The notes: generated by a model from the sequence alone, not told the origin. A DNA stretch of 64,000 bases from a bacterium (GCA_030698495.1 JAUYKA010000005.1:8404-72403), one strand, 5' to 3'; counted from the first letter of the stretch, positions 1-43,273 are shown. Numbers and translations are program-made.

Positions 1-687
1 GCCGCCACCGCATCTTTTATATAAACAAAATCCCGTTCCTGCTCGCCATCGCCAAACCCATCGTTATATGATTTAAATAACTCAATAACCCCTTTGTCGC
101 GCACCTGCTCAAACTTTTTTGCTATCACACTACGCATCGACCCCTTGTGCTGCTCGTTCGAACCAAACACATTGAAATACCGCAATCCCACCACCTTATC
201 TAAATATCCGCCGTCCCTCGCCCAAATATCCACCGCTAACTTGGATTTGCCGTACAAATTTAGCGGCTTCAACCGATCAAATAAATCATGGTCGTCTTTA
301 AATCCCAGCTTGCCGTCGCCATAGGTCGCCGCACTGGAAGCATAAACACATCGCCCATCCCGATCAAAACACCAGCGTATTATATCCTTTGAATACTCAA
401 CGTTATTATCAACCAAATAATCCCAGTCATTTTCTGTCGTACTGCTGCACGCCCCCATATGCAACACCGCTTCAACGCCGCTATCGTTGTATTCCCCGGC
501 TACCAGCTTTTCCCGAAACTCTTTTATACCTGCCAACTGCTCATACTGCAAACCGGCAATATTTATTTCCTTGTCATCACTGTCAATGTCATCAACAACC
601 AAAACATCGCTAACCCCGCGTTCGTTCAGCCCCCACAACAAAGCACTGCCGATAAAACCCGCGCCGCCAGTGATAATATACTTCATA
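1..687 (-). CDS. hldD: ADP-L-glycero-D-manno-heptose 6-epimerase (SDR family). N-terminal part only; the C-terminus lies beyond the window start.
   Basis: Minus-strand translation starts MKYIITGGAGFIGSALLWGLNERG with the GxxGxxG Rossmann motif. The HKGSMRSV and ASSAATYG blocks are typical of HldD/RfaD. ATG at 685-687. Confidence 0.75.
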
Positions 688-690
688 TAT

Positions 691-1206
691 TTAGCTCTCT
701 TCCTTTATTTTTTTCACAATGTCGCTCGTGGCCAATCCCGGGCGGCGCTTAACCGTATAACCTTGCGCCCCAACTTCTTCCATTACCGGCCACTCTATCC
801 ATGTTTCCGGTTCACCGTATTCCGAACCGTTTACATGCACCTGCGGCTTTATCAAGCGTATTAAGGTTTGCGCCACCTCATCGTAAAGCCGATCAACAAT
901 CACCACGTAATCCACACTCTCTAGCGCCGCCAGCATTGCCGCTCGCTCATCTTCAGGAATATACGGCCGGCTCTCTCCCTTGCCTTCCCGCACCGACTTA
1001 TCCGAATTCAAACCGATAAACAAAACATCACCCTGCCGCTTGGCCTCCTCCAGAAAATCCAAATGCCCCGCGTGCAGCAAATCAAAAGAGCCGTTAACAG
1101 TCACAATTTTCTTCCCCGAAACCCGCAACTCCTCCGCTCGTCTCCCTCCCTCCTCCAAGGAAAGGATTTTGTCGTATCGCCAATTATGTTTAGTTTTATC
1201 ATCCAT
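691..1206 (-). CDS. hldC: D-glycero-beta-D-manno-heptose 1-phosphate adenylyltransferase (cytidylyltransferase fold, RfaE domain II-like stand-alone protein)
   Basis: GSFDLLHAGH nucleotidyltransferase (H/T)xGH motif; size 171 aa; sits between gmhB and hldD. Confidence 0.75.
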   Translation of the reverse strand: MDDKTKHNWRYDKILSLEEGGRRAEELRVSGKKIVTVNGSFDLLHAGHLDFLEEAKRQGDVLFIGLNSDKSVREGKGESRPYIPEDERAAMLAALESVDYVVIVDRLYDEVAQTLIRLIKPQVHVNGSEYGEPETWIEWPVMEEVGAQGYTVKRRPGLATSDIVKKIKEES

Positions 1207-1278
1207 AAATTATTATTACATTCTCATAATGACACCAGTCTTACCTATCTTGCAATGATACACACAGTGTCCAGCACT

Positions 1279-1414
1279 CACACCGCGTGTCTTTTGTGAC
1301 CGTCTAAAAGCCTGTCAGCTCGGTTCCCCGCCTTTGGGCGGGGATGACAGGCTTTTAGTCGATAGCGACCGCCGCTGGAGCGGTCGCTATGTGTCACAAA
1401 AAACACGCGGCGTG
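1279..1414. repeat. GC-rich structured intergenic element, family E, copy 1 (between gmhB and hldC)
   Basis: Conserved core GACCGTCTNAAG...CCGCC-loop-GGCGG...TCGA...CCGCCGCTGG..GCGG inside an outer stem whose sequence is unique to this copy. Confidence 0.7.
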
Positions 1415-1451
1415 AAAAGTGCCGGACACTAGTGAACCCGCGAAAGATAAT

Positions 1452-1997
1452 TTACCTAATAGACAAGACCATCTTCACCGCTTCAAACAAAGAATCAACT
1501 ATTAAATCCGGCCTATCACTCAATTTATCCTCCTCCCAAAACCTGCTCGTAATTAAAGCTGTGTGCATTCCCAGCGCCTTGCCAAAACCTAAATCCGCCT
1601 CCTTATCTCCTATCATCCAACTATTCCCATAATCAATCGGCCCCAGCGCCGCTTCAACCTGCTTGGCCATGCCCGTTCGCGGTTTACGACAATCACATAT
1701 ATCTTCCCGCCCGTGCGGACAATAGGCGATATAATCCAGTTTTGCCCCTGATTTTGCCAGCTCTTCTTCCATATACTCGTGCAATTTCTTCATATCTTCT
1801 GCCGTGTACAACCCGGCCGCTATGCCCGACTGATTAGTAATCACCGCCAACTTAAAACCGGCGTCCCGCAGTGCTATCAACGCCTCCGGCGCCCGCTCGG
1901 TGAACCGCCAATCTTCTATTTTATAAGTGAATCCGTCATCAATATTTATCGTCCCATCCCGGTCCAGAAAAAATACCTTATGTCCCTTACCGCTCAT
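1452..1997 (-). CDS. gmhB: D,D-heptose 1,7-bisphosphate phosphatase (HAD family)
   Basis: FLDRDGTIN HAD motif I; CPHGREDICDCRKP zinc-binding motif typical of GmhB; 11-nt overlap with the upstream kinase gene. Confidence 0.8.
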   Translation of the reverse strand: MSGKGHKVFFLDRDGTINIDDGFTYKIEDWRFTERAPEALIALRDAGFKLAVITNQSGIAAGLYTAEDMKKLHEYMEEELAKSGAKLDYIAYCPHGREDICDCRKPRTGMAKQVEAALGPIDYGNSWMIGDKEADLGFGKALGMHTALITSRFWEEDKLSDRPDLIVDSLFEAVKMVLSIR

Positions 1998-2985
1998 TAT
2001 AATGCGTCAGCAAATCAATAACTTCTGCCCCCGTTGTGCCGGCGCTGCCGATCTTATGCGCTACCACCGCGGCCGCCGCGTTAGCCAAATCGGCCGCTTC
2101 CGCATCTTCTGCCCCGCCCAGCTTAGCCAGCAGTACTACCGCTGCCACCGTATCACCGCACCCCGAAGGATCCAAAACGTCGTTGGATTTTACATAATCT
2201 TGAGGTATGTGTTCACCTTCTCCGCCACCGTCAAAAACGTAAATCCCTTGGTCGCTCAAAGTCAAAAATATTGTGGCGCCAAACGTCTCGTGTAACAGCG
2301 CCGCCAGTTCTTCCTTATCCTTGCCTCCACCGTCAAACTGATTCAACCCCAAAAACTCATGCGCTTCCTTTCGGTTGGGAGATAAATATGTCGCGTTGGT
2401 AAAGTAATTAATCCGCGACGGCTTTACGTCGGCCATCAGAGGCAAATTATTTTCCTTACACACAACCTGCACCGCCTCCGCCACTTTTTCTGTCACCACC
2501 CCTTTGGCATAATCGGACACCAATACTCCATCTGCCTCTTTTGCTGCTTCTCTTATGGCCGCTATTAGTTTTTCCTCAACTTCACCGGAAACATCGCTTG
2601 CTTCTTCATAATCCACCCGCAATATTTGCTGCGTCTTCACAATAAACCTGGTCTTATCGATTGTTGAACGTTCTTTATCCCGCACCGGTTTCAAATCGTA
2701 TCCTTCCTTACCCGCCGTTTCCGCTACCTCGTCAGCCACATCATCTTCACCGGATACACCAATCAAAATTGTTTGGGCGCCCAACATCGCCAAATTTTTC
2801 GCCGTATTCCCCGCCCCGCCTGTCGCTTTCTTTTCTTCCTGCGCCAGTAAAATCGGCACCGGCGCTTCCGGATTTAACCGTTCCACTTTGCCATAAATAT
2901 ACCTATCCAAAAAAACATCCCCAACCACCAGTACGCACTTACCGGCAAACTGATTAATCAATTCTTTTGCTCTACTTAATTCCAT
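1987..2985 (-). CDS. hldA: D-glycero-beta-D-manno-heptose 7-phosphate 1-kinase (PfkB family, RfaE domain I-like stand-alone protein)
   Basis: PfkB ribokinase-like fold with GGAGNTA and DPSGCGDT motifs; 332 aa; heptose gene context. Confidence 0.7.
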   Translation of the reverse strand: MELSRAKELINQFAGKCVLVVGDVFLDRYIYGKVERLNPEAPVPILLAQEEKKATGGAGNTAKNLAMLGAQTILIGVSGEDDVADEVAETAGKEGYDLKPVRDKERSTIDKTRFIVKTQQILRVDYEEASDVSGEVEEKLIAAIREAAKEADGVLVSDYAKGVVTEKVAEAVQVVCKENNLPLMADVKPSRINYFTNATYLSPNRKEAHEFLGLNQFDGGGKDKEELAALLHETFGATIFLTLSDQGIYVFDGGGEGEHIPQDYVKSNDVLDPSGCGDTVAAVVLLAKLGGAEDAEAADLANAAAAVVAHKIGSAGTTGAEVIDLLTHYNER

Positions 2986-3022
2986 TATAATAAGTTATGA
3001 GTTACGAGTTCCAAGTTATACA

Positions 3023-3589
3023 TTATGCTTCCGGCGGTTCAAACATCTCACACATCAGGTGTATTGCGTGCAAATGCATCTCTTGTATTCTGGCACCCGT
3101 CTCACTTGGCGACACAATCGCGTAATCCGCCATATCCTTAAATTCACCTTTTCTGCCTGTCATCGCCACCACCGTCATTCCCCGTTTTCTCGCTTCCTCC
3201 GCCGCCAGTAAAATATTTTTCGAAGTACCCGACGTTGTCAGGCCGATAAACACATCGCCCTCCCCGCCTAAAGCCTGTACCTGGCGTTTAAAAACATCCT
3301 CGTACCCCCAATCGTTACCAATACAAGTTATCACCGCTCCATCAGCCGTCAGTGCAATTACCGGATAAGCCGGCCTCTCCTGCTTATATTTCCCCACCAT
3401 CTCGTCCGATAAATGCTGTGCCTCCGCCGCCGAACCGCCATTACCGGCCACCAACACTTTATTCCCCCGCTCAAAAACCTCCCGCAAATGTTCTCCCACT
3501 TCCTCCACCTGCCGGTGAAATTCCTCCACGTCTGCCGTCACCTCGTGCAGCTCTTGCGAATGTTTTTTAAATATCTCTACTGTTTTCAT
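3023..3589 (-). CDS. gmhA: Phosphoheptose isomerase (SIS domain)
   Basis: SIS domain motifs (VAGNGGSAAEAQH, TTSGTSKN). The likely start is MKTVEIFKK, with ATG at 3587-3589; the longer ORF-track start lies inside the upstream spacer. Confidence 0.8.
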   Translation of the reverse strand: MKTVEIFKKHSQELHEVTADVEEFHRQVEEVGEHLREVFERGNKVLVAGNGGSAAEAQHLSDEMVGKYKQERPAYPVIALTADGAVITCIGNDWGYEDVFKRQVQALGGEGDVFIGLTTSGTSKNILLAAEEARKRGMTVVAMTGRKGEFKDMADYAIVSPSETGARIQEMHLHAIHLMCEMFEPPEA

Positions 3590-3675
3590 ACTGTTATTAT
3601 TTAATGCTTTATAACTATGACACAAAACATACAAATACCTTACAACCTTCCCGGGCGGGTGGCGCCTGCAGGCGC

Positions 3676-3835
3676 TTAGTCACGGCTGCTTTTGTTTTTT
3701 GCGACCGTCTCAAGAACTGCCAGCCCGGTCCCCGCCTTGAGTTTATCGAAAGGCGGGGTGGCAGATCTTGAGCCGAGCGCAGTCCGCCGCCGGGGCGGAC
3801 AAGTACGTCGCAAAAAGCAAAAGCAGCTGTGACTA
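3676..3835. repeat. Family E element, copy 2 (between gmhA and rfbD)
   Basis: Same core architecture; the outer stem is AGTCACGGCTGCTTTTGTTTTTTGCGAC paired with its complement. Confidence 0.7.
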
Positions 3836-3875
3836 AAAATGCACCCGCCAAAGACCGCTCTCCAACACTAATCAC

Positions 3876-4697
3876 TTACCTCGTTTTAATGTACTCGTCA
3901 AGAGCCGTCTCCCACGGCCGCAACACCGGCCCCCTCGTATTATTCAATATACTATATTTCGGCCTCGCCGCGGGCAAAGGATATTCACTGCTGGCAATCG
4001 GCCTAACTATTACCTTCATCCCCGCCAACTCAAAAATCTTGACCGCAAAATCATACCAACTGGCACGGCCGCTGTTCACGGCATGATAAACCCCCGGCTC
4101 ATAACCGCCCGACACAACTTCCTTTGTCGCCCCGGCCAAATCCATCGTATACGTCGGACTGCCCCACTGATCATTAACCACCCCCAACTCTTTCTTCTCG
4201 CCGACCAAACGCAGCATCGTCTCCACAAAATTCTTACCATACGCACCGTAAAGCCACGCTGTGCGTAATAAATAATACTTTGGCGCTATTTCCCGCAAAG
4301 CCTTCTCTCCGGCCAACTTTGATTCTCCATACACATTCACTGCCGGACCAGGCTCGTCATCTTCGCCGTACCCCGCTTCCTGCTTACCATTAAAAACATA
4401 GTCCGTACTATAATGTACTAATATCGCGCCGCTTTCTTTGGCCGCCAATGCCAGATTTCTCACGCCCGTCTCGTTTATAGCAAAAGCCAAGTCGCGCTCT
4501 TTCTCCGCCCCGTCGACGTTCGTATAAGCTGCCGCGTTAATAATCAACTCCGGTGACAGCTCACTAATTTCCCGATTAACATCAGACTGTTTCGTAATGT
4601 CCAGTTTATCCTTATCCCCCACAACAGCTTCTGCCCAAACAGAGCGCAGCGCGTGCCCCAGCATACCGTTGCCGCCCACAATCAGCACCTTGGCCAT
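3876..4697 (-). CDS. rfbD: dTDP-4-dehydrorhamnose reductase
   Basis: N-terminal GGNGMLG Rossmann motif; YSTDYVF and YGESK catalytic motifs of RmlD. Confidence 0.8.
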   Translation of the reverse strand: MAKVLIVGGNGMLGHALRSVWAEAVVGDKDKLDITKQSDVNREISELSPELIINAAAYTNVDGAEKERDLAFAINETGVRNLALAAKESGAILVHYSTDYVFNGKQEAGYGEDDEPGPAVNVYGESKLAGEKALREIAPKYYLLRTAWLYGAYGKNFVETMLRLVGEKKELGVVNDQWGSPTYTMDLAGATKEVVSGGYEPGVYHAVNSGRASWYDFAVKIFELAGMKVIVRPIASSEYPLPAARPKYSILNNTRGPVLRPWETALDEYIKTR

Positions 4698-4701
4698 ACT
4701 A

Positions 4702-5649
4702 TTATTTACTTGCCAGATAATTCTTAAGCCATATTACAAATTTTTTCGCGCCTTCATCCACCGAGATTTTAGGCTCATACCCCAGTAAATCTTTAGCTTT
4801 ATCGATATTGGCGAACGTAATCTTCATTTCGCCCGGAGGAGTCGGGCGATCTTTCACTTGCGCCTTCTTTTCTGCTGCTCTCTCTAACAATGATACCAGC
4901 TCTCTAATCACCACCGGCTCCCCCCGTCCGATATTTAACACCTCAAAATCCAGCTCTGTATCTAGAGCCGCCAGTACCGCCGGAACCACATCATCAATAT
5001 ATGTTAAATCTCTCTGCCGCTCATCCACGTTTACCTCCAATACTTCACCTTTTAATATGCGCTCCGCAAATATCATCGGCGCCATATCCGGCCGCCCCCA
5101 GGGACCGTAAACACTGAAGAAACGCAGCACGGTTATTTTAGTGCCATACAACTCATGCCACATCTGACAATAAACTTCCGCCGCCGCTTTCGAAGCTCCG
5201 TAAGGAGACTTCGGCTTTAAAGGATAACTGTCTTCCTTAAACGGAACCTGCTCGTCGTTATAAACAGACGAACTTCCCGCCAATACCACCCTGTTCACGC
5301 CATGACGGCGCGTCGCCTCCAAAACCGACAACGTCCCGTCAACATTAACACGTGTGTACTCAAAAGAATTATCCAGGCTGGTTTTAGGATTGGCGTGCGC
5401 CGCCAAATGCAGCACCACATCAACACCATTTTTCATCGCCTCGTCTAAAACCGCCGCGTCTAAAATACTTCCCTCAATCAGCCTGGCTCCCTTCCCAACC
5501 AACTCTGCCAATCGCCGGCGCTTTAAATCCGCTCCGTACACTAAGTCGCTAAAATTATCCACTATCACAACATCATCTCCACGCTCCGCCAGCGCCTTTG
5601 CCACATACGCGCCGATAAAACCGGCGCCGCCGGTAATAAGTACTTTCAT
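4702..5649 (-). CDS. NAD-dependent nucleotide-sugar epimerase/dehydratase (UDP-glucuronate 4-epimerase-like)
   Basis: GGAGFIG motif, the YGASK catalytic YxxxK and the GRPDMA motif of the Cap1J/UDP-GlcA epimerase subgroup. Confidence 0.6.
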   Translation of the reverse strand: MKVLITGGAGFIGAYVAKALAERGDDVVIVDNFSDLVYGADLKRRRLAELVGKGARLIEGSILDAAVLDEAMKNGVDVVLHLAAHANPKTSLDNSFEYTRVNVDGTLSVLEATRRHGVNRVVLAGSSSVYNDEQVPFKEDSYPLKPKSPYGASKAAAEVYCQMWHELYGTKITVLRFFSVYGPWGRPDMAPMIFAERILKGEVLEVNVDERQRDLTYIDDVVPAVLAALDTELDFEVLNIGRGEPVVIRELVSLLERAAEKKAQVKDRPTPPGEMKITFANIDKAKDLLGYEPKISVDEGAKKFVIWLKNYLASK

Positions 5650-6197
5650 ACAAAATTATATTCGCCCTTATCAAAATCCGGAAAATTCGCGTCCCTTTCG
5701 GATACTACCGGATTTTCTACCGGCCACTCGATATTCAGCTTTGCGTCGTTCCATCTTACGCCACGCTCGTGATCCGGCGAATAATAATCGGTGCAGTAAT
5801 AAATCACTTCGGCTTTATCTGCCAGCACTACAAATCCGTGCGCGAATCCCGGCGGAATGTATAGCAACTCTTTTGTCCGCGCCTCAAGTTTTTTTCCCAC
5901 CCACCTACCAAAACTATCCGATGATTTCCTTAAGTCAACCGCCACGTCAAAAATTTCTCCGGTTATAGCCGTAATTAATTTGCCTTGCGTCTTTGGTTCA
6001 AGCTGATAGTGCAAACCGCGCAAAACACCATGTTTACTTGCCGAGTGGTTAACCTGAACAAAGCCCATTTCAATGCCGTTGTCGCTAAATTCCTTCTTTC
6101 GATACATTTCTGCAAACAAACCACGCTCATCCGGATATAATTTCGGCCTGACGCTCACTACGCCACTAATTTCCAGCTGTTTAAACTCAAAAGACAT
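5646..6197 (-). CDS. rfbC: dTDP-4-dehydrorhamnose 3,5-epimerase
   Basis: Cupin fold with RGLHYQ, PPGFAHGF and YYCTDYYSP motifs of RmlC. Confidence 0.85.
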   Translation of the reverse strand: MSFEFKQLEISGVVSVRPKLYPDERGLFAEMYRKKEFSDNGIEMGFVQVNHSASKHGVLRGLHYQLEPKTQGKLITAITGEIFDVAVDLRKSSDSFGRWVGKKLEARTKELLYIPPGFAHGFVVLADKAEVIYYCTDYYSPDHERGVRWNDAKLNIEWPVENPVVSERDANFPDFDKGEYNFV

Positions 6198-6264
6198 AAT
6201 TTTAGTATCAGTTTATCCTATATACTACGCTTTCTCACCCCCATTTTCTAGTTTTAATATCCTT

Positions 6265-6612
6265 CTAAAATTTCGTTTGTTGCTCCACTAAAAAATCATC
6301 CAGCCACATCCTCGCCTCTTCGCCTTTTAATATCTCCTCCGCATTACTGCCTACCGCCGCGCCGGTCTTAGCCGGCAAAAGCGTATACGCGCCTTCCGAT
6401 AATAACAATACCCGCTTTTGCCGGCGACCAGTCAAAACATCGCCGCGTACCGCCGCCGCGATAATCGCGCCGACCAGCCATAAAACAAAACTCAACACCG
6501 GCACCGTATGCAAAATAACACTAATAAACAAACCGACCAAGGCGCCGCCCAAGACCCATAAAATAGTTACGATATTCTGTGTCGGCTTATCAGTAATCAT
6601 AAATAGCTCCAA
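6265..6612 (-). CDS. Hypothetical small membrane protein (2 TM)
   Basis: Hydrophobic ORF of 115 aa; no recognisable domain. Confidence 0.35.
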   Translation of the reverse strand: MELFMITDKPTQNIVTILWVLGGALVGLFISVILHTVPVLSFVLWLVGAIIAAAVRGDVLTGRRQKRVLLLSEGAYTLLPAKTGAAVGSNAEEILKGEEARMWLDDFLVEQQTKF

Positions 6613-6639
6613 ATCCTACCAAACCTTCGCCAAATAATC

Positions 6640-6815
6640 AACCGCCATACCAGCGAGTACAGTAAATACAGCAAGTACAGTTTTTCTAACCCCCTCTATT
6701 CTAATCCTTAGGTTTAGAAAGACCTCTACAGCCTGTCTAACACTCTTTCTAAACCTAAGGTTTAGAATAATTAGAATACTTTTCTGTATTTACTGTCCTC
6801 GCTGTATTTACTAAA
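6640..6815 (-). terminator. 175-bp nested inverted repeat 3' of lepA (outer CAGTAAATACAG/CTGTATTTACTG, inner TTCTAA..TTAGGTTTAGAAAG/CTTTCTAAACCTAAGG..TTAGAA)
   Basis: Two nested inverted repeats; the CTGTATTTACT motif recurs at 37083-37141 and 58683-58730. Confidence 0.45.
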
Positions 6816-6822
6816 TTTATCC

Positions 6823-8640
6823 TCACGTTCTCTTTAATACCGCCAAATATGCCTGCGTTGGAATTTTCACTTTGCCTTGCTGCCCCATCCGTTTCTTTCC
6901 CTTCTTCTGTTTTTCCAGCAACTTTCTTTTGCGGGTCACATCCCCACCATACAAATATCCCGTCACATCCTTGCGCATTGCCGGTAATGTTTCCCGCGCA
7001 ATAATATTGCCGCCAATCGCCGCCTGAATCGGTATGGCAAACAACTGGCGCGGAATCACCTCTTTAAGCTTCTTCACCATGCGTCGTCCGATTGCTTCCG
7101 ACCTGGAACGAGCCACAATCACCGAGAGCGCCTCTACCGTCTCATGATTTACCATTACTGCCAGCTTTACCACGTCCGCGTCGCGCCATTCCGTCAATTC
7201 ATAGCTCATCGACCCATAACCCGCCGTGACCGACTTCAAATGATCGTATAAATCAACCACTAATTCCCGCAACGGCATTTCATACGTCAGCTGAACACGA
7301 TCGGCCTCCAAATAATGTTGGTTTTTTATTACCGCCTCCCGATCTTGCATAATCTCAAACACCGCCCCCATATACTTAACCGGCGTCAGCACGTCCACTG
7401 CGGCGTATCTCTCTTTTATTGATTCAATATTAGACGGATCAGGCCAACTAGCCGGAGTGTTGGCTTCTATTTCCTTCCCCCCACGCCCCATTATCTTGTA
7501 AGCGACACTGGGTGTGGTAATCACCAAATCCAGTTTATGCTCCCGATGCAGCCTCTCTTGCACAATATCCATGTGCAACATACCTAAAAATCCGCAGTGA
7601 AAACCTTGGCCCAGCGCGTCGCTCCTTTCCTGAACCACCGAAATACTGGAATCGCTAAGCAGTAACTCTCCGATGGCGTCGCGCAAAATCGGAAAATCAT
7701 CGCCTCGTTCCGGAAAAATTCCGGCGAACACTTTCGGCTGGGGAATACTGAAACCGAGCAAAGCCGTCAATTTGCCACCATCCTTAACCAGCGCGATCGT
7801 ATCTCCAACCCTCGCTTGCCGCACATCTTTCAACCCGGTAGCAATGTAGCCTATTTCCCCGGCCGACAACTCGGACTTTACCTGCCAATCGGGATTAAAA
7901 ATGCCAACCTCCACCGCGCGATCCGACGCTCCCGTTCCCAAAAAAACAATTTCATCACGCGCCTTTACTTTCCCCTCCACCACGCGCACATAAGCCACCA
8001 CTCCTTTATAATCATCGTAAACGGAATCAAAAATCAAAGCGCGCAGGGGACTATTAACGACTTGTTCAGCTGCCGGCACCCGCGACAATATTGCGTCCAG
8101 AACCTTCTCCACGCCTTCGCCCGTTTTTGCCGAAATCAACAAAATATCTTCCTCCCTGCCGCCCAAAAGACTTATTATTTCTTTCTTCGTTTTTTTAACA
8201 TCCGCCGCCGGCAAATCAACTTTATTGATCACCGGAATTATAACCAGATTCTGCTCCAATGCCAGATACAAGTTGGCAATTGTTTGCGCCTGCACTCCTT
8301 GCGTAGCATCCACCAGCAATATCGCTCCCTCCACCGCCTGTAGGCTTCGGCTGACCTCGTACTGAAAATCAACGTGCCCGGGCGTGTCGATTAAATTCAA
8401 AACACTATCACGCCTGTCCCCCATAGCCGTCACATCATGGGACGCGGCGGGGGGCCAGCTCATCCGCACCGGCTGCAATTTAATGGTGATGCCGCGCTCC
8501 CGCTCCAGCTCCATCGAGTCTAATAATTGCTCCTTCATGTGGCGTTTATCGACCGTTCCCGTCAACTCCAGCATCCGATCCGCCAAAGTGCTTTTACCGT
8601 GATCAATATGAGCGATAATACAAAAATTATATATATTCAT
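6823..8640 (-). CDS. lepA: Translation elongation factor 4 (LepA)
   Basis: AHIDHGKST G1 motif, DTPGH motif and the LepA-specific C-terminal domain; 605 aa. Confidence 0.9.
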   Translation of the reverse strand: MNIYNFCIIAHIDHGKSTLADRMLELTGTVDKRHMKEQLLDSMELERERGITIKLQPVRMSWPPAASHDVTAMGDRRDSVLNLIDTPGHVDFQYEVSRSLQAVEGAILLVDATQGVQAQTIANLYLALEQNLVIIPVINKVDLPAADVKKTKKEIISLLGGREEDILLISAKTGEGVEKVLDAILSRVPAAEQVVNSPLRALIFDSVYDDYKGVVAYVRVVEGKVKARDEIVFLGTGASDRAVEVGIFNPDWQVKSELSAGEIGYIATGLKDVRQARVGDTIALVKDGGKLTALLGFSIPQPKVFAGIFPERGDDFPILRDAIGELLLSDSSISVVQERSDALGQGFHCGFLGMLHMDIVQERLHREHKLDLVITTPSVAYKIMGRGGKEIEANTPASWPDPSNIESIKERYAAVDVLTPVKYMGAVFEIMQDREAVIKNQHYLEADRVQLTYEMPLRELVVDLYDHLKSVTAGYGSMSYELTEWRDADVVKLAVMVNHETVEALSVIVARSRSEAIGRRMVKKLKEVIPRQLFAIPIQAAIGGNIIARETLPAMRKDVTGYLYGGDVTRKRKLLEKQKKGKKRMGQQGKVKIPTQAYLAVLKRT

Positions 8641-9124
8641 AAGCCTTAGTATCGAGAATATAACACAAGACCGTATCAGCTGCCATAAATAAAATTAGGC
8701 CGCCGTTATCTGCCAAGTATCGCGATCCCCCCAGGAATCAATGCGACTCGACAAACAACGACGGCCAAAAGGGCCAAGATTCTCGCTTCGCCTTTTGACT
8801 TCACCGCGTGAAAACCGGACTGTCTCTTGGCATCCCTTTTACCTCCAACTTTAGGGTTTAGGGTGCACAGGCCAGGGGATCGCGGTACGGCTGTCGGGTG
8901 ACTTCCCCGACATTCAAACCGTTACCCGCGCGCCCGGGGGCCGCCGTCAGGAGGTCGTCGCGCAATAAGACCTTTTCTCGAGCTTCCCTCGCATACGCGC
9001 TCCTTCCTGCCAGGGCAACTAGATAGCCACCCGGCAAAGAGACAGAAAAAGAGAACAACTAACTACCCGTTTTATAGTACCTATTGACACACGAGTCAAT
9101 AGTCACATAAAAAATTAACGAGAA

Positions 9125-9230
9125 ACTCAAAATGAAAAACTCAAATTAACAAGATAAAACCAAAAACAGTTGCGGCAGTTTTGCCTTTTGCGTTGTTATT
9201 TTGAGTTTTTCGTTTTTAGTTTTTAGTTCT
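9125..9230 (-). terminator. Long AT-rich imperfect hairpin (AAAAC-repeat family) 3' of murJ
   Basis: Arms GAAAAACTCAAA...CAAAA and TTTTG...TTTGAGTTTTTC. Confidence 0.4.
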
Positions 9231-9232
9231 CT

Positions 9233-10849
9233 CTACTCCAACATCCCCCCAAACCTCGGCGTCTCCGTTCCCGCCTCTATCTTCGCCCGCCGCGGCAAAT
9301 ATTTCCGTATCGCCGCCAGCTCGTCGCACCTAAACAACAAACACATAGCCACATACGCCGCCACCCCGCCGCCGAAAGATACTAACAGCTGCAGCAATAC
9401 CCCCCAAAACCTGGTCATATCCACCATCGCCGCCACCGGATATTTTAGCGCCTGCAAAACCATTCCGGCCAGTACCGCCGCTACCGTTATCCTCGCCAAA
9501 CTAAACAGCACCTCGCGATCATTAAAACCGTTCAACTGCCAATGCAGCACGCCCAACAGCATCACTAAATTCAAAATCGCCGCCACCGAAAAAGCCAGCG
9601 CCAGCCCCTGCACGCCCATTCGCGGCGCCAACCATATTGCCAGCGCCACATTTACCACAATACTGATTAAAGAAACCGTCACCGGAATAATCGTGTTTTG
9701 CCTCACATAAAACGCTCGCGTCAACAACGGCACCGTCGCTTGCGCAAACAAACTGATCAGCAGCAACCCCAGTGTTTCGAAGGTTAGAATAGTATCTTCC
9801 CAGTCAAAAGCGCCGTCGCCAAACAGCACCCGAATCAACTGCGCGCGCAGCAAAAAGAAAAAGACCGCCACCGGCACCACTAGAAACAAAATATACCGAA
9901 AGGTTTTTGTCAGTGTATTCCTGAATTCTTTTTCCTGTCCTCGCGCTACTTGCTCCGCCAAGGTGGGAAAAGCCGCTTGGGCAAACGCCAAGCCGAATAC
10001 CCCTATCGGCAGACTCTGCACATTACTGGCCAAATGAAAAACCGAAATGGTTCCCGCCGCCAGCCCGGAACCGATTATCGTAACTAAAAACAAATTCACC
10101 TGTGTTCCGGCCAAACCGAATATACGCGGAATTATCATTCGCCGCAGTTTTTTTACATCAACGGAAGACCACTCCATTATCAGCCGCCAGCGCCAGCCGA
10201 CCGCGATCGCGCTCGGCAATTGCACCAACATATGTAGTGCTGCGCCCAGCACCACACCCCACCCCAGTCCGGATACTCCCATCATCGGCACCAGCCAAAC
10301 CACGCCGATAATTATACCGACGTTATAAAGAATCGGCGCCATCGCGTAAGCCACAAAACGCTTAAACGAATTCAGCACCCCGGAGAAAATAAAACTGATA
10401 CTCAATAATATCGGCTGCAGCGCCATCACTCGGGAAAGCATTATCGTCATTGCCAACTTGCCGCCGCTAAAACCCGGCGTTATCAAAGGCACAATCTTAT
10501 CGGCCAACATCACATATAAAATACTGAATATTATTACCACAATCAGGACTAAGTGAAGAACGGACAAGGAAAAATCAAACGCCTCTCTCTTTTTTTTATC
10601 TTTGCTATGAACCAGTTTCTCTGTGAACAAAGGAATAAACGCGGCCGACAAAGCTCCTACTACAACCAAATTAAAAATCAGGTCTGGTAAACGAAACGCC
10701 GCCACAAAAGCGTCAAACGTATCACCCGCGCCAAAGGTCGTGGTAAAAACCCTTTCTCTGATTAAACCCATGAAACGCGAACCTAAAGAGGCCGCTCCTA
10801 AAATCAGGGCCGCCGACACTACTCGACTGCTTACACCGTTTCTGGCCAT
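9233..10849 (-). CDS. murJ: Lipid II flippase MurJ/MviN family
   Basis: 538-aa polytopic membrane protein with the MurJ N-terminal signature (FMGLIRERVFTTTFGAGDTFDAF). Confidence 0.8.
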   Translation of the reverse strand: MARNGVSSRVVSAALILGAASLGSRFMGLIRERVFTTTFGAGDTFDAFVAAFRLPDLIFNLVVVGALSAAFIPLFTEKLVHSKDKKKREAFDFSLSVLHLVLIVVIIFSILYVMLADKIVPLITPGFSGGKLAMTIMLSRVMALQPILLSISFIFSGVLNSFKRFVAYAMAPILYNVGIIIGVVWLVPMMGVSGLGWGVVLGAALHMLVQLPSAIAVGWRWRLIMEWSSVDVKKLRRMIIPRIFGLAGTQVNLFLVTIIGSGLAAGTISVFHLASNVQSLPIGVFGLAFAQAAFPTLAEQVARGQEKEFRNTLTKTFRYILFLVVPVAVFFFLLRAQLIRVLFGDGAFDWEDTILTFETLGLLLISLFAQATVPLLTRAFYVRQNTIIPVTVSLISIVVNVALAIWLAPRMGVQGLALAFSVAAILNLVMLLGVLHWQLNGFNDREVLFSLARITVAAVLAGMVLQALKYPVAAMVDMTRFWGVLLQLLVSFGGGVAAYVAMCLLFRCDELAAIRKYLPRRAKIEAGTETPRFGGMLE

Positions 10850-10890: not shown

Positions 10891-12843
10891 CTATTTACTC
10901 TCCAGCACCGCACCGATCAGCCTATCTTCCCTCAACTCGCCGCGATACGTAAAACGATTATAATCTGTTTGCGTAATTCCGTCACTTGGCACTATATAAC
11001 CCACCCTAACGTTTTCCGGCAGTCTTATCTCCGTTCGTAATTGCGTACGCGTATCTCCCGGCTGCTTAGCCACATACACCGAGTAACGCCCCGCTTTATT
11101 AATTAATCCTGGCATCTGCACACCCTGGGGAATAATATACCGATACAAAGCCACGGACGTCGCTCCCGGTTGCGTCACTATCCAGTTGGCAAAATACAAA
11201 TAGCCCGCTTCTTCACCTATCAACGTACCATTTTCCCCCTGCCGTTGCGCCTGCTGCCAGGCAGCCACGTCGGCATCAGCCGACAACCCCTCAATCTCCT
11301 CTGGCTCAACCAGCTGTGGTACTTGCCCGGCCGGAGTAAAACCTCGCACCTCCTCAAGCACGGCGCCTTTCGGAACAAACACCCGCTGATATATGACATT
11401 ATCTTTAAAGGCCGGGTCTTCTCCTTCCCGATAATTCCCCGCGATCTTCTCCTCCGGTCCGCGATGCGTCCGCCTGATTGTTACCGTTGCCTCCACCTCC
11501 CCGTTTTCCCTGACCTCACTGCGATAATCTATCTCCTGCTCCACAAACTGATCGCTTTTATGCCCGCCGATATTGGCGTTTATCACACTCAAAAAGCCCG
11601 GTTCCGCCTGCGGCCACGTACCGCTGCCGCCCATCTCATCCAGCCTCTGCTGCTCGGCACCGTCTTTCATGTAAACCAGCAGTTGCTTCTCTTGAATCAT
11701 TTTTGCCAGCGCCGACATTGCCTGTAGATTATTCTGTCCCGCTCCCGTAAAAACCTTATTCATCAGCAGCGGAGTTAAATCAGCCAAAAATTGTTTCGGC
11801 TTATTCACTTCCCGGTCATATGAATAAGTCACCTGGTCTTGCGTTAAAGCCACAAAATTATCGGCGCCCACCGTCACACCGTACGCCGGCACTTCAATCG
11901 GTCCCGTAATTTTGAGCAGCTCTTTTACCACCTCCGGCGTCATAGCAATAACTCCGTCCACCGTCGGACCGCCTTCTTTCTCAAAAAAGTCCGCCGCCTT
12001 AGCCGCGCTCACACTGTAATCCGCAAACCAATTTACATCGCGCAAATACCACCGATTCGTTATGCGCCTTAGCGGCTCCGGCGGCGCAATATAGTCTTTC
12101 ATCTGTCCGTCCGGATCATACACCGTTTGCACATCAACTGTTTCAATTATCCCCCGATCCACATTAACCAAGCCAATACTGCCGATAAATCCTCCAGTCG
12201 GCCGCTGTTCGTTGTTGTTTTCAAATAAAATCAGATACTGCCGCTCGCGCTTACTACCCAACAAAGTTAACAGCCAATCTCCCTGGTTAACCAATAAATC
12301 CAACGGTTTTTTTATCTTCGCTACCGCGTTTTTCGTTTCACTCACCTGCTGTTTCAACTCATTAGGCAAAAACACGTCGTTGACTGTGTTCAAATTCGCG
12401 TCCGCCGCGTCTATCTCCGCCGCCGCCGCTCTCATCTCCTCCAGAGAATCCGACAACGCTGACATAAAATTACTCCCCTCCGCATCGACACCATTGACCA
12501 GCGGCTCGGCTCCGCGGGCAAAATGTTGTCCGGCACGGGCAATAGCTTCGGCGGCACGTAATATTCTGTCCCCGGATTTTACCGTTCCCGTTAAATCAAC
12601 AACCTCCAACACAGTTTTGGCTGTCGCTAACGCCCCCGCCAACTCACTCCTGGCTTCAGCCAACAACTGTTCCGCTTCTCCAAACTTTGTCTCGCCTTCC
12701 GCAAAATTTTGATCGGCCAGCGCCGTCTGTCCCATCGCCACTCTCTCATACGCTTCCTTAGCGTTACTAGCCACCGAACCGAGCGCTGCGTAACCCCTGC
12801 CTAAAGCCTGCAAATTCCACAGCAACCCCCAAGACGCTGACAA
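10891..12843 (-). CDS. DUF4012 domain cell-envelope protein (C-terminal 650 aa; TTG start is probably artificial, see frameshift finding)
   Basis: YLILFENNNEQRPTGGFIGS is a DUF4012 hallmark. A TM helix (ANLILLLVGLSASWGLLW) is encoded immediately upstream in the same frame, without an ATG. Confidence 0.6.
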   Translation of the reverse strand: MSASWGLLWNLQALGRGYAALGSVASNAKEAYERVAMGQTALADQNFAEGETKFGEAEQLLAEARSELAGALATAKTVLEVVDLTGTVKSGDRILRAAEAIARAGQHFARGAEPLVNGVDAEGSNFMSALSDSLEEMRAAAAEIDAADANLNTVNDVFLPNELKQQVSETKNAVAKIKKPLDLLVNQGDWLLTLLGSKRERQYLILFENNNEQRPTGGFIGSIGLVNVDRGIIETVDVQTVYDPDGQMKDYIAPPEPLRRITNRWYLRDVNWFADYSVSAAKAADFFEKEGGPTVDGVIAMTPEVVKELLKITGPIEVPAYGVTVGADNFVALTQDQVTYSYDREVNKPKQFLADLTPLLMNKVFTGAGQNNLQAMSALAKMIQEKQLLVYMKDGAEQQRLDEMGGSGTWPQAEPGFLSVINANIGGHKSDQFVEQEIDYRSEVRENGEVEATVTIRRTHRGPEEKIAGNYREGEDPAFKDNVIYQRVFVPKGAVLEEVRGFTPAGQVPQLVEPEEIEGLSADADVAAWQQAQRQGENGTLIGEEAGYLYFANWIVTQPGATSVALYRYIIPQGVQMPGLINKAGRYSVYVAKQPGDTRTQLRTEIRLPENVRVGYIVPSDGITQTDYNRFTYRGELREDRLIGAVLESK

Positions 12844-12860: not shown

Positions 12861-13805
12861 TCAGGTTAGCGGTATAAAATACTGTTTTTTTTTACCCCGC
12901 GCCGCCTCGTCGCAAGAGAGGCGAAGTGGGTGTTTGCCCCGCGCCGCTTGATTGTAATCGGACCTCTGCGGGGTTTCACTCAACCCGACTTGATTGTCTT
13001 CAGTCATCCCGCCCGCGTCAACAAATTCCGGCGTCGGCTTATAACCCAAGACTGGTTTATGTTTCATTGGACTATGTTTTTTCCCAGGCAGCCGCCCAAA
13101 AGGCCAGATACTGAAATGCAATGGTAAGGCAAATCGTCGCCTCGGCTCCTCGATTGTTGCCGACGCTAAGATTGGTTCCGTCATTTCCAAAGTAGCCGGA
13201 GCCGAACTTTTTTCTTGCGACCAAGAATATGACACGTCTCTTTCTCCGCTCACCAACAGACCTGTAGGGATCTTTTCTTTTTTCCTGCTCGGCCAATTCG
13301 CCACTCCCGGTCGCTTAATTTTCTTGCGCGTCATATTTTCTGCCTTTACCGGCACTGTCCGCGCCACAGTCACTTTCGTCGTCGGTGCGGTTCTCCTCTT
13401 GACCGCCAAACCCACATATGGCGGTAATGTCATTTTTAGCGTCGGTTTCGACTGGCGATAAACATCTCCGGTGTGATATTCCACGCCCCTATTCACCTGC
13501 TTGGGCACTTTCAATCTGCCGTAAGCGGGTGCCGTACTCGGCAATTCGGAATATATCGGTCTTCTCTCAAAACGAACAATTGCCTCGCGTTGTTTTTTCT
13601 GCCGCCGCATACGCGTCATTTCCTCCCTCACTGGCCGGCGCAGTCTGGCCGGCAGACGCCAATCAATTTGTACCACTTTCGGCCCTGCTTGGTTCATCGT
13701 CTGACGCTTTCTGCTTTCCGCGCCCACTAAACGACGCCGGCGGTCTTTCCCTCCGCGCTCTTCGTGATTGTATGAAGGATTATTGGGTGCAACTACATCC
13801 AGCAC
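12861..13805 (-). pseudogene. Basic Pro/Arg/Lys-rich 314-aa ORF, probably the N-terminal cytoplasmic region of the DUF4012 gene split off by a 1-nt frameshift in a T9/A9 homopolymer (12885-12893)
   Basis: The ORF ends GKKKQYFIPLT* reading through AAAAAAAAA. One additional A fuses it in-frame to KKTVFYTANLILLLVGLSASW..., the start of the DUF4012 ORF. Confidence 0.5.
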
Positions 13806-13857: not shown

Positions 13858-14988
13858 TCATCGTTTTCCTGTTGCCTCTTCATACACCTTAAGATGTTGT
13901 TCCACCGCCTTATCCCACTTAAAGAATTGCGCCCGCGCTCTCCCTTCATCCGTTAATCGCGCCCGCAATCTATCGTCGTTCATAACCCGCTCCACCCCGG
14001 CCGCTATATCAACCACGCTTTCCGGATTGACATAAATCGCCGCCTCCCCCATTACTTCAGGCAAACTGGACACGTTAGATGTAACCACCGGCGCGCCGCA
14101 GGCCGCCGCTTCCAGTACCGGCAAACCAAACCCTTCGTACAAACTGGGCCAAACAAAACACGCCGCTTCTGCGTACATGGCCGGTAACAATTTCTGCGGC
14201 ACATACCCGGGAAAAATTACTTTTTGCTCCAGACTCAATGTCCGTGTCAACTTTAAAACTTTTCCCCAACCCGCCTTGGGCCGTCCGGTAATCACTAATT
14301 TATAATCGAATCCTTTTTTAATCAGTAAACCAAACGCCCTGATTAAACGATCCAAATTCTTGTGGCTCATCCACACCCCCACAAATAGCAAATACGGTTT
14401 GTTCGTACCAATAAGCAGCCTGGCCTTCTGCCTCTCCTCTCCGGTCACCGGCCGCCAAAATGACTCGTCCACACCTTCATATATCACTGTAGTTTTATCC
14501 GACATCTGAAGCGGCAAAAAGTTCAGCGCTTCTTTTGTCGCTTGCGACACGGCGATTATCGCCCTTGCGCCCTCTATCGCTCTCTTAAATACATACTCGT
14601 ACGCTATTTGCTGTTTCAAACCCTGGCGCCGCTGGCCAGGAAAAATAAACCGTGTCACATCATGCACGGTTACCACATACGGTCCCCGAAAAAATACCGG
14701 CACGTTAAAATGAGTAAAATGCCACAAATCCGCCCGCACTCCCGCGAGCTGCCGCCAGAACACAGTCTGTTCCCGCCAGGAATAATACGACCCATCCACT
14801 AATTTCATCTCAACTTTCCCTTTCGGAAACTCCGCGGCAAATCGCTTAAACGCCTCAGCGTCCGGCGCGCTTACCAGCGCCACATACTTATGATTATCCT
14901 CACAGCGCGCCAGACCCGCGATGATATTTCTGGTATATCTCCCGATCCCCGCCCAGCTAAAAGCTCTCGCGTCAATTGCTATTCGCAT
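13858..14988 (-). CDS. Glycosyltransferase family 4 (GT-B, RfaB-like)
   Basis: C-terminal GT1/GT4 E-x7-E region (EGFGLPVLEAAACGAPVV). Confidence 0.8.
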   Translation of the reverse strand: MRIAIDARAFSWAGIGRYTRNIIAGLARCEDNHKYVALVSAPDAEAFKRFAAEFPKGKVEMKLVDGSYYSWREQTVFWRQLAGVRADLWHFTHFNVPVFFRGPYVVTVHDVTRFIFPGQRRQGLKQQIAYEYVFKRAIEGARAIIAVSQATKEALNFLPLQMSDKTTVIYEGVDESFWRPVTGEERQKARLLIGTNKPYLLFVGVWMSHKNLDRLIRAFGLLIKKGFDYKLVITGRPKAGWGKVLKLTRTLSLEQKVIFPGYVPQKLLPAMYAEAACFVWPSLYEGFGLPVLEAAACGAPVVTSNVSSLPEVMGEAAIYVNPESVVDIAAGVERVMNDDRLRARLTDEGRARAQFFKWDKAVEQHLKVYEEATGKR

Positions 14989-15053: not shown

Positions 15054-16181
15054 TCACTCCAAGACGCTCTCCATAACTTCTATCGTCTCCCGTGCCGCGT
15101 TCCCCCAAGAATATCTATTCCGTATTTCCTCCCTTTGCTGACTGGTAACTTCCGGCAAATCATTCAACAGCTCGCGCAACACCACGGCAATTTCCGCCGC
15201 GTTGGCGGGGTCCACTAAAGTCGCCCAGTCGCCGACTACCTCCGGCAGTGATGAGTTAAAAGAAGTAACCACCGGCGTTCCCGCCAGCAACGCTTCCAGC
15301 GGTGGAAAACCAAACCCTTCGTAAAAACTGGGGTAAACAAACAAATCCGCTCCGGCATACAAACACTGCTTATCTTCTTCTTCCACAAAGCCCATCACCT
15401 TAATTCGCGCGCGCGCCGATGACTGCCTGACCGCCGCTTGAATCGGCCCCATTAACCAGCCCCTGCTGCCGGCAATAACCAGGTCTTGCTCGACACTATC
15501 GGCAATCGCGGTATACGAACGCACTACGCCAATAATATTTTTACGCGGTTCAAAAGTACCTAAAAACAGCACATATCTACGAGGCAATCCGTATTTTTCC
15601 CGCACCCGGTCAATCTCTTCGCGGGAAGGCGGCTCTTTCCAATCCGGCGTACCGGAATGAATGACCGTCACCTTAGCCGCGTCCAAACCGTAAATATCCG
15701 TTACGTCCCGGGCGGCGGCGGCGGAAACCGCGATTATGTGATCGGCATTCCTCAATAATTTTCTCGGCTGAACATATCGATGCCACAGACGCCTCTGTCG
15801 GGAATAAAATTCCGGAAAGCGCTCAAAAGATAAATCATGCACCGTCACCACGTATGGCGTCCTGGCCGACACCGGCAGGGGACGCGCGTTTGGCACAAAA
15901 AAACAATCCGCCGTGATCAAACCATCCCAGCGCGGCCAATTCAGTACATACTGACTGGCGTTGAATAGTTTATTGGGATATTTAAATACTGCCCTCTCAA
16001 TATCTTCGCCTAAATACGGCAACTCAACCGGCGACCAGGCGTTGTAGAAAACTTCGTATTTATTATCTCCGGGCACCTCCAGCATAGCCCTGATAATTTG
16101 CGAAGTGTACTCTTCGACTCCGCTGTGCCTGCCTTCCATCAGCGACCGAACGTCAATCGCTATTTTATGTCCCCCCTTCAT
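15054..16181 (-). CDS. Glycosyltransferase family 4
   Basis: EGFGFPPLEALLAGTPVV motif. Confidence 0.8.
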   Translation of the reverse strand: MKGGHKIAIDVRSLMEGRHSGVEEYTSQIIRAMLEVPGDNKYEVFYNAWSPVELPYLGEDIERAVFKYPNKLFNASQYVLNWPRWDGLITADCFFVPNARPLPVSARTPYVVTVHDLSFERFPEFYSRQRRLWHRYVQPRKLLRNADHIIAVSAAAARDVTDIYGLDAAKVTVIHSGTPDWKEPPSREEIDRVREKYGLPRRYVLFLGTFEPRKNIIGVVRSYTAIADSVEQDLVIAGSRGWLMGPIQAAVRQSSARARIKVMGFVEEEDKQCLYAGADLFVYPSFYEGFGFPPLEALLAGTPVVTSFNSSLPEVVGDWATLVDPANAAEIAVVLRELLNDLPEVTSQQREEIRNRYSWGNAARETIEVMESVLE

Positions 16182-17951: not shown

Positions 17952-17995
17952 CCAGATATATTAACGTAAGGTTGGCGACAACGCCAACCCCGCCA

Positions 17996-18110
17996 TAAAC
18001 TTAAAACTAAAAACTAAAAACTAAAAACTGCACCATAAAAAGAAAAAAGAACCGCGTAAAATCGTTCTTTTTCGTTTTTCACTTTACGTTTTGCGTTTTC
18101 TTATACCGCA
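17996..18110 (-). terminator. AAAAC-repeat hairpin family, 3' of the WbaP-like gene
   Basis: (AAAACT)x4 arm, central GC hairpin, GTTTTTCACTTTACGTTTTGCG arm. Confidence 0.4.
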
Positions 18111-20350: not shown

Positions 20351-20409
20351 AAAAAAACCGCCCAGATTTTTGTCTGAGCTGTTTTTTTATGCCAACCAAA
20401 TAGATAATT

Positions 20410-22354: not shown

Positions 22355-22363
22355 ATACCTAAC

Positions 22364-23854: not shown

Positions 23855-23855
23855 A

Positions 23856-43270: not shown

Positions 43271-43273
43271 ACT

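Follow-up and report, generated by a model that had tools for sequence, protein, structure and literature searches.

An ADP-heptose gene cassette in pathway order inside a dTDP-L-rhamnose operon of Candidatus Andersenbacteria, probably supplying a surface glycoconjugate other than lipopolysaccharide

ADP-heptose belongs to textbook lipopolysaccharide (LPS) core chemistry and is a potent ALPK1 agonist. In E. coli, the kinase and the adenylyltransferase of its synthesis are fused in HldE, hldD (rfaD) stands beside the heptosyltransferase genes waaF and waaC, and the remaining heptose genes are scattered around the chromosome. Neisseria, Ralstonia and Burkholderia have monofunctional HldA and HldC, and these diderm bacteria use the product for LPS or lipooligosaccharide (LOS). 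The GDP-D-glycero-α-D-manno-heptose pathway (GmhA, HddA, GmhB and HddC), known from S-layer glycans and capsules (Aneurinibacillus, Campylobacter), supplies heptose for surface glycans other than LPS, with a monoderm among its hosts, and is characterized by a GHMP kinase, an NTP_transferase, the α anomer, GDP activation and no 6-epimerase. For ADP-heptose itself, a precedent in bacteria without LPS comes from Gram-positive Streptomyces, which make it as a secondary-metabolite precursor for septacidin and hygromycin B, as described in PMC10221265 (which cites Tang et al. 2018). Moreover, Chiriac et al. 2022 (Microbiome, PMC9166423) report the ADP-heptose pathway (KEGG M00064) as specific to Paceibacteria among freshwater Candidate Phyla Radiation (CPR) classes, and in their module tables the Kdo2-lipid A, CMP-Kdo and LPS-core modules (M00060, M00063, M00080; Kdo, 3-deoxy-D-manno-octulosonic acid) are absent in all classes. 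Here, we analyzed 64,000 nt of bacterial DNA (GCA_030698495.1, JAUYKA010000005.1:8404-72403; the whole stretch is referred to as the window), which begins with five co-oriented minus-strand genes, gmhA-hldA-gmhB-hldC-hldD, matching the step order of the ADP-heptose pathway. Our analysis makes it probable that this cassette is the ADP-heptose pathway, located inside a dTDP-L-rhamnose operon of Candidatus Andersenbacteria and likeliest supplying a non-LPS surface glycoconjugate.

Compared with the E. coli-type pathway, the window cassette comprises the same four enzyme families with the same chemistry and reaction order, and its proteins match the solved structures of E. coli GmhB and AGME and of C. 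jejuni and Burkholderia GmhA. In contrast to E. coli, the kinase and the adenylyltransferase are encoded by separate genes, as in Neisseria, Ralstonia and Burkholderia, the five genes adjoin one another in pathway order, and the window locus has no glycosyltransferase family 9 (GT9), lipid A or Kdo context; unlike in those three diderm genera, the product is not read here as an LPS or LOS precursor. The GDP-heptose pathway has GmhA and GmhB in common with the window cassette, in which none of the features that distinguish that pathway was found. Streptomyces use ADP-heptose within a biosynthetic gene cluster, whereas the window cassette lies in a rhamnose/glycosyltransferase locus. The Paceibacteria metagenome-assembled genomes (MAGs) in the tables of Chiriac et al. 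(PMC9166423) share with the window the pathway, the broad CPR lineage and the lack of lipid A/Kdo modules; those tables give presence at module level only, and the gene order, the nesting among rml genes, the split genes, the lack of GT9 and the HldC motif come from the present analysis. Already known are the pathway, its split HldA/HldC form, its occurrence in Paceibacteria and ADP-heptose in LPS-less bacteria; the present analysis adds how the operon is built, how it is conserved, that no GT9 is found nearby and that the HldC motif is a variant one.

All five genes run on the minus strand. Step 1 is assigned to gmhA (3023-3589, ATG at 3589), encoding a 188-aa sedoheptulose-7-phosphate isomerase, step 2 to hldA (1987-2985), a 332-aa PfkB-type heptose-7-phosphate kinase, step 3 to gmhB (1452-1997), a 181-aa heptose-1,7-bisphosphate 7-phosphatase of the HAD-IIIA type, step 4 to hldC (691-1206), a 171-aa monofunctional heptose-1-phosphate adenylyltransferase, and step 5 to hldD (1-686), of which the window start cuts off all but the first 228 of the 326 aa of an ADP-glyceromanno-heptose 6-epimerase. 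The gmhB start (ATG) overlaps the hldA stop by 11 nt, and the spacers measure 37 nt (gmhA to hldA), 245 nt (gmhB to hldC), 4 nt (hldC to hldD) and 286 nt (rmlD to gmhA). An earlier note on this DNA had proposed a complete pathway in exact step order with separate kinase and adenylyltransferase genes. Indeed, all five open reading frames (ORFs) were found where it placed them, profile and Protein Data Bank (PDB) matches agree with the order, and hldA and hldC are two distinct ORFs without fusion rather than a bifunctional HldE. Completeness stands for the gene content, all five genes being present, but hldD is complete only through an extension outside the window, on a public contig (L003; contigs and loci other than the window carry L numbers) that equals window positions 1367 to 1 with 0 mismatches and carries hldD through its stop (326 aa). 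Given five contiguous co-oriented genes, the chance of the exact pathway order is 1/120, and the colinearity counts as a single inherited event because related CPR loci share the same order; the colinear cassette is thus an old feature inherited within this CPR lineage.

As to the host, NCBI labels the identical HldC protein Candidatus Andersenbacteria bacterium, and the kinase HldA is located on a 6-kb contig of GCA_034372665.1. The lineage of Candidatus Andersenbacteria (Patescibacteria group, Parcubacteria group, Candidatus Anderseniibacteriota) bears out the earlier suggestion of a CPR host, and CPR are regarded as a monoderm clade.

The identities of the five proteins were based on the best NCBIfam profile match, with the curated equivalog cut-offs of that library, on Pfam and on PDB sequence matches, and for each of the five the best NCBIfam match in the library was the cognate heptose enzyme. 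GmhA matched TIGR00441 with 192.7 bits (E = 3.7e-57; cut-off 209.45), against 128.7 bits for the model of the paralogue DiaA, passed PF13580 SIS_2 for its SIS fold (84.9 bits) and had C. jejuni GmhA (1tk9, 2.1e-46) as its best PDB match. Its stretches AQH..E and IQE..H are conserved in the alignment with 1tk9 and B. pseudomallei GmhA (2xbl), and contain what we take to be the zinc and active-site residues (His, Glu, Gln and His of B. pseudomallei GmhA). HldA matched TIGR02198 (rfaE_dom_I) with 279.7 bits (2.8e-83; cut-off 345), against 57 bits for the ribokinase model, and PF00294 for its PfkB fold with 118 bits; its sole PDB match at E<=1e-10 was B. cenocepacia HldA (4e84, 1.2e-41), with which it shares the GxGD anion-hole and catalytic Asp motif (SGCGDT aligned with SGAGDT). 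GmhB matched the β-type model NF006506 with 164.8 bits (1.4e-48; cut-off 178), against 83 bits for the HisB-N model, and passed the cut-offs of TIGR01662 and TIGR01656; E. coli GmhB (3l8e/2gmw) was its best PDB match, and both its DxDxT nucleophile motif (DRDGT) and its CxH...CxC zinc loop (CPH...CDC) align with 3l8e. The α-type model NF050049 reached 115 bits, a difference suggestive of a preference for the β anomer. HldC matched TIGR02199 (rfaE_dom_II) with 141.7 bits (1.4e-41; cut-off 181.5), against 41 bits for the TagD model, and PF01467 for its cytidylyltransferase-like fold with 61.9 bits; B. pseudomallei HldC (5x9q, 4.4e-20) was its best PDB match, and its HxGH motif, HAGH, is invariant across 26 homologues. 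The HldD fragment scored 253.9 bits (2e-75) with TIGR02197 (heptose_epim), below the cut-off of 274.6, and the full-length protein from L003 scored 370 bits, above it. In the alignment with E. coli AGME (1eq2, 1.1e-64), YASSAATYG, YGKSK (YGxSK) and HKGSM are conserved, and with them the Ser/Tyr/Lys triad of the short-chain dehydrogenase/reductase (SDR) family and the extra catalytic Lys region. These data uphold the HldC and HldD assignments of the earlier note by profile searches as well as by matches to characterized enzymes.

The cassette is set within an operon that runs rmlC, an SDR gene, rmlD, the five heptose genes, rmlA and then an ArnC/GtrB-like glycosyltransferase family 2 (GT2) gene. 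On the minus strand directly upstream of the cassette is rmlD (3876-4697), encoding dTDP-4-dehydrorhamnose reductase (TIGR01214, 311 bits; cut-off 224), preceded on the same strand by the gene of a 315-aa SDR-family NDP-sugar epimerase/dehydratase (4702-5649; GalE 149.6 and dTDP-glucose dehydratase 141.3 bits, both below cut-off) and by rmlC (5646-6197), encoding dTDP-4-dehydrorhamnose 3,5-epimerase (TIGR01221, 236.9 bits; cut-off 155.75). The SDR gene has a counterpart in L005 and L089 and is missing from L008-L012. Downstream of hldD, L003 carries rmlA (291 aa), a gene for an 87-aa membrane protein and the GT2 gene (322 aa); rmlA, which the earlier note had wanted looked for in the rest of the genome, was thus found next to hldD, just beyond the window start. 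RmlC, RmlD and RmlA all score above curated cut-offs, and the best matches of the GT2 protein are ArnC, PgfS and AglJ, which are polyprenyl-phosphate glycosyltransferases. We infer co-transcription of the cassette with the rml genes.

Conservation was assessed in loci from an HldC-alignment scan with one genome per species, from which the best 80 of 577 confirmed loci were taken; the window proteins were mapped onto these and onto loci found via the GT2 protein. The order rmlD-gmhA-hldA-gmhB-hldC-hldD recurs in seven other CPR loci with all five heptose genes on the fetched DNA (L005, L006, L008, L009, L010, L011 and L089), whose proteins are 47-73% identical to those of the window. rmlA comes next in 7/7 of them, followed by GT2 in all but L010, where the contig ends inside rmlA. 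In L012, all five genes stand in the same order and the contig ends before the rmlA position, and two incomplete loci (L021 and L092) are consistent with the arrangement. Among the best 80 of 577 loci, the non-CPR HldC relatives (~70 loci, 38-57% identity), which come from Chlamydiota, Fibrobacterota, Planctomycetota, Acidobacteriota and other phyla, have hldC alone or beside hldA. In a neighbor-joining tree, the CPR HldC proteins form one clade, inside which one 3-kb contig binned as Verrucomicrobia nests.

Several relatives carry additional genes in the operon. In L011, the interval from rmlC to rmlD, just upstream of the heptose genes, contains a transaldolase gene (4256-5278), and in L012 a split transketolase plus a transaldolase (4299-6908) occupy this interval. 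Transaldolase and transketolase make sedoheptulose-7-phosphate, and therefore the substrate supply sits in the same cluster in these two loci. Genes for these two enzymes were also searched for in the 64-kb window and were not found. L008 has a NUDIX-domain protein gene (574-1446) between rmlC and rmlD, and a 755-aa ORF (4484-6748) between gmhB and hldC, which has no Pfam match and looks polytopic by eye. L089 has, between rmlA and GT2 (8743-9882), a gene for a DUF11 surface protein with a long Pro-Thr-rich linker and a C-terminal membrane anchor. L005 extends further downstream into a GT4 gene, an RmlB-like SDR gene and genes for two PMT_2 (GT-C) proteins. The L008 755-aa ORF was considered as a relative of these PMT_2 proteins and BLASTP gave nothing significant (best E = 0.045). 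The genes inserted in L008 and L089 are possible leads to the acceptor or the transferase.

In the proposed pathway, GmhA would isomerize sedoheptulose-7-phosphate, the PfkB-type kinase HldA would phosphorylate C1 in β configuration, the HAD phosphatase GmhB would take off the 7-phosphate, the monofunctional nucleotidyltransferase HldC would add AMP and the SDR epimerase HldD would invert C6. ADP-L,D-heptose and dTDP-L-rhamnose, made together, would then most likely go into a surface glycoconjugate with rhamnose and heptose, made by a cell that has no outer membrane. This could be a glycoprotein or a polysaccharide linked to the wall, rather than the LPS inner core; for the destination of the heptose, we infer both the acceptor and the transferase.

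The nucleotide of the product was considered from the C-terminal motif of HldC, RRPGLATS, which aligns with the STTR5-type FEHDRSTT of B. pseudomallei HldC and has Leu, not Arg, at the fifth (STTR5) position. This Leu and the two preceding Arg are invariant in 26 CPR homologues, and Leu also occupies the position in most Chlamydiota and Fibrobacterota HldC relatives. In PMC11461863 and PMC11573728, the motif (F/L)xxGRSTT with the STTR5 Arg is linked with CTP/UTP promiscuity (Tang et al. 2024), and heptose nucleotidyltransferases of many lineages are reported to take CTP or UTP as well, the STTR5 Arg not being strictly needed. The window enzyme lacks this Arg, and ADP-heptose would be its parsimonious product because Leu stands at the fifth position in CPR and in most of those relatives, with indirect support from HldD, a dedicated ADP-heptose 6-epimerase. 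It is accordingly unlikely, though worth weighing, that the pathway makes CDP-, UDP- or GDP-heptose instead of, or besides, ADP-heptose: such a product would fit the widespread acceptance of CTP/UTP reported there and the CPR clade having its own motif with two invariant Arg just upstream, but the invariant Leu is shared with most Chlamydiota/Fibrobacterota relatives and HldD passes its curated cut-off as an ADP-heptose 6-epimerase. GDP-heptose in particular needs the GHMP kinase HddA and the NTP_transferase HddC, and both are absent. The GDP-heptose pathway is excluded by the PfkB-type kinase and by the rfaE-II-type (cytidylyltransferase-like) nucleotidyltransferase, and the only nearby NTP_transferase is the adjacent RmlA (TIGR01207, 475 bits against a cut-off of 360; HddC model, 48 bits). 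The GDP-heptose nucleotidyltransferase that the earlier note had raised as a possible misreading is thereby ruled out.

A second alternative concerns the fate of the heptose, which could go into a soluble product, either a secondary metabolite of the septacidin/hygromycin type or ADP-heptose that is released and acts on a host. We regard this as quite improbable. It can draw on the Streptomyces precedent (PMC10221265) and on the failure to identify a heptosyltransferase here, but the cassette is embedded in rml genes with a polyprenyl-phosphate GT2 after rmlA, L005 continues into GT4 and PMT_2 genes, the window has a WbaP/GT4/flippase locus upstream, no tailoring or nonribosomal peptide synthetase/polyketide synthase-type genes occur among the scanned ORFs of the window and loci, and the arrangement is kept across a clade of reduced genomes.

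Conventional use in an LPS/LOS inner core, with lipid A/Kdo genes and GT9 elsewhere in the genome, is less probable still. ADP-L,D-heptose is classically the LPS-core precursor, outside CPR the closest relatives of HldC belong to diderm phyla, and our view of the genome is limited to ~67 kb, all of which would favor such a use. Against these points stand the placement of the host in the CPR/Parcubacteria group, CPR being treated as monoderm, the absence of Kdo2-lipid A, CMP-Kdo and LPS-core modules from the published freshwater CPR tables (PMC9166423), and a tblastn search with E. coli WaaC, WaaF and WaaU, in which neither the 64-kb window nor the CPR loci (fetched DNA around the cassette, up to ~21 kb each) had a match at E<1e-3. 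The same GT9 query did find matches in the fetched hldC flanks of five non-CPR loci (L013, L024, L050, L062 and L077). The non-LPS reading of the earlier note, which had suggested a look at heptosyltransferases as well as Kdo/lipid A genes, is thus supported by the lack of GT9 in the window and CPR loci, by the lack of lipid A/Kdo modules in those tables and by the monoderm view of CPR. Finally, we give almost no weight to the notion that the five ORFs are co-located paralogues (DiaA-like SIS, ribokinase-like, HisB-like, CoaD/TagD-like and GalE-like) with other roles, for although 4/5 proteins stay under curated equivalog cut-offs and the DiaA, ribokinase, HisB-N and TagD models match too, more weakly, the heptose-specific model lies far above the paralogue every time (279.7 versus 57 bits for the kinase, 192.7 versus 128.7 for GmhA and DiaA), HldD passes its curated cut-off, and the five functions stand together, conserved in the clade, with sedoheptulose-7-phosphate-producing enzymes inserted in two relatives.

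Several observations weigh against reading the locus as an ADP-heptose operon for a surface glycoconjugate. GmhA, HldA, GmhB and HldC score somewhat below the NCBIfam equivalog cut-offs, and the name that NCBI itself gives HldC is merely generic; divergent CPR proteins frequently score a little under curated cut-offs. No heptosyltransferase was identified in the window or the CPR loci, and the genome was covered over 64 kb plus ~3 kb of overlap, so that GT9 or LPS genes may lie elsewhere. The downstream GT2 was considered as a heptose-specific transferase and rejected, its orthologues (55-71% identity) occurring without the cassette in L090, L096 and L098. One relative (L094) has hldD-rmlA-GT2 with none of the other four genes at a distance of up to 7 kb; its hldD and rmlA are separated by an ORF that reads, from sequence alone, as transposase-like. 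Promoter and terminator scans of positions 1-9300 performed no better than on shuffled sequence. In addition, RRPGLATS departs from both the canonical (F/L)xxGxSTT and the promiscuous STTR5 form, and, as promiscuity does not strictly require STTR5 according to the papers cited above, the Leu does not settle nucleotide specificity.

A conserved, complete pathway in bacteria without LPS points to another structural role for heptose in the CPR envelope, which is itself little known, and the conserved link to dTDP-rhamnose together with the lack of a nearby GT9 narrows the hunt for the acceptor and the transferase. More tentatively, and with the odds somewhat against it, monoderm Paceibacteria-type CPR may pass ADP-L,D-heptose to a non-GT9 heptosyltransferase, the product being a wall polysaccharide with rhamnose and heptose or a surface protein with O-glycans. 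Candidates for this step are a clustered GT4, or a route through the polyprenyl-phosphate GT2 and a GT-C (PMT_2-type) enzyme, and hints in the same direction come from the 755-aa ORF of L008, the DUF11 protein of L089 and the PMT_2 genes of L005. If true, this would mean a new heptosyltransferase class and a new type of envelope glycan, and ADP-heptose, an innate-immune agonist, would be among the products of these ultra-small bacteria.

Further upstream on the minus strand, a 115-aa small membrane protein gene (6265-6612) without a family match lies between lepA and rmlC; genes for 111-114 aa proteins hold this position in L001 and L005, and L089 has a weak homologue (30% identity). Beyond lepA, Pfam searches identified a MurJ-like flippase (9233-10849), a DUF4012 protein (10891-12843), three GT4 glycosyltransferases (13858-14988, 15054-16181 and 16836-17951) and a WbaP-like Bac_transf initiating transferase (18101-19555), all on the minus strand. 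The 220-aa minus-strand product of 16213-16875, which has no family match, is putatively Wzz-like from its two-transmembrane-segment topology. The earlier note had the cassette continue through rmlD, an epimerase and rmlC directly into GT4, Wzz-like and WbaP-like genes; these genes were all found, although lepA and the murJ-like and DUF4012 genes intervene after rmlC. In L005 and L010, too, the cassette has DUF4012, MurJ and LepA upstream. In the window, a 314-codon ORF with a GTG start (12861-13805, minus strand), located between the DUF4012 gene and the first of the GT4 genes, encodes a very basic, low-complexity K/R/P-rich sequence without a family match and may not be a real gene.

Two spacers of the operon contain palindromic elements, termed Family E, which had been reported at two gene junctions and proved real by fold z-scores and a covariance model (R1). 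The copy between gmhB and hldC spans 1256-1438 (core 1289-1404; fold -136.9 kcal/mol, z = -13.3; R1 112 bits) and the copy between rmlD and gmhA spans 3654-3849 (core 3694-3818; fold -132.5 kcal/mol, z = -7.5; R1 116 bits), both on the minus strand. The covariance model found exactly four copies in the window, of 166-196 nt and all in one orientation, the other two being at 38201-38375 and 44207-44372 (minus strand), and no copy in the other CPR loci examined. The elements are Y-shaped and near-perfectly paired, the junction copies measuring ~180-196 nt, and, next to a conserved core (GGCGGRGACCRGGC ... GACGG), have a side hairpin rich in GC and an outer stem, 30-45 bp long, whose sequence varies between copies with pairing kept; 9/34 core pairs show compensatory changes among the four copies. 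At the same junctions, the L005 spacers are only 9 nt (rmlD to gmhA) and 5 nt (gmhB to hldC), and therefore the elements are insertions. The MAG contigs L001 and L003 both end inside the copy between gmhB and hldC. No Rfam match was obtained in 1150-3950 at E<=1, and thus Family E is not a described RNA family. Its minus- and plus-strand folds are similarly stable, with few G-U pairs and no consistent strand preference, and therefore it behaves as a DNA-level palindrome; an RNA under selection on one strand was considered and found no support, as both strands fold alike. Family E looks like a lineage-specific palindromic repeat of the miniature inverted-repeat transposable element (MITE) or repetitive extragenic palindromic (REP) kind, and the junction copies may split or modulate the operon transcript.

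Among the loci with a GT9 match, L024, from a MAG labeled 'uncultured Candidatus Saccharibacteria', has a heptose cluster of different build at 4489-10053, which encodes a GT4, a GT9, HldA-cupin (569 aa) and HldC-GmhB (335 aa) fusion proteins, and an epimerase. For this GT9, just three close homologues were found among 5.8 billion proteins, followed by matches of ~30-35% identity; the next-best named matches are Acidobacteriota WaaF-type proteins, none has a CPR name, and the protein is not informative on the cassette-bearing clade.

Over the whole window, the large ORFs are all on the minus strand except the one at 27880-28986, and the plus-strand GC skew is ~-0.25 to -0.35 throughout positions 1-64000, nearly all genes being on the minus strand. 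Measured on the coding strand of 21 genes, GC skew amounts to +0.39 in first codon positions and +0.44 in third positions (G 40%, C 15.5%). A bacterial RNase P class A RNA (19838-20354, plus strand; 170.6 bits), at 517 nt against a 367-position model and hence with large insertions, lies in the interval from the WbaP-like gene to proS, and nearly all protein genes are on the other strand. A low-GC island at ~22000-29000 (0.37-0.43, against ~0.49 elsewhere) holds genes for a TdeIII-type restriction endonuclease, an N6/N4 DNA methylase, a Fic protein and a RadC-like protein, together with the sole sizeable plus-strand gene (27880-28986, 368 aa, no family match), and the GC skew falls to ~0 at 28-30 kb.

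ORF sizes and order also suggest a ribosomal-protein/EF-Tu/EF-G/SecY region in the window. Within this presumed region lie two copies, 93-98% identical, of an 83-110-nt repeat (50727-50868 and 53125-53233; families D6 and D10), in which an AT-rich periodic 'TTATCT' stretch is followed by a GC-rich hairpin (CCGTGTCCCTCCGTAGCCTTGTGCGGAGGGGGA). Short-period A/T-rich intergenic repeats (families D1-D5, D7 and D9 overall) of the types AAAACT/AAAACG and GAAATTG/CAATTT occur at 9114-9238, 17994-18107, 43159-43297 and 45028-45174, and further at 41866-41942, 46482-46605, 52523-52581, 58163-58221 and 60818-60945; they may be promoter or upstream-element arrays. Finally, a hairpin, AAACGGCTCA-(loop)-TGAGCCGTTT, occurs three times with runs of A or T on its flanks (family D13; 21946-21985, 25499-25538 and 63168-63207) and looks like a shared bidirectional terminator motif.

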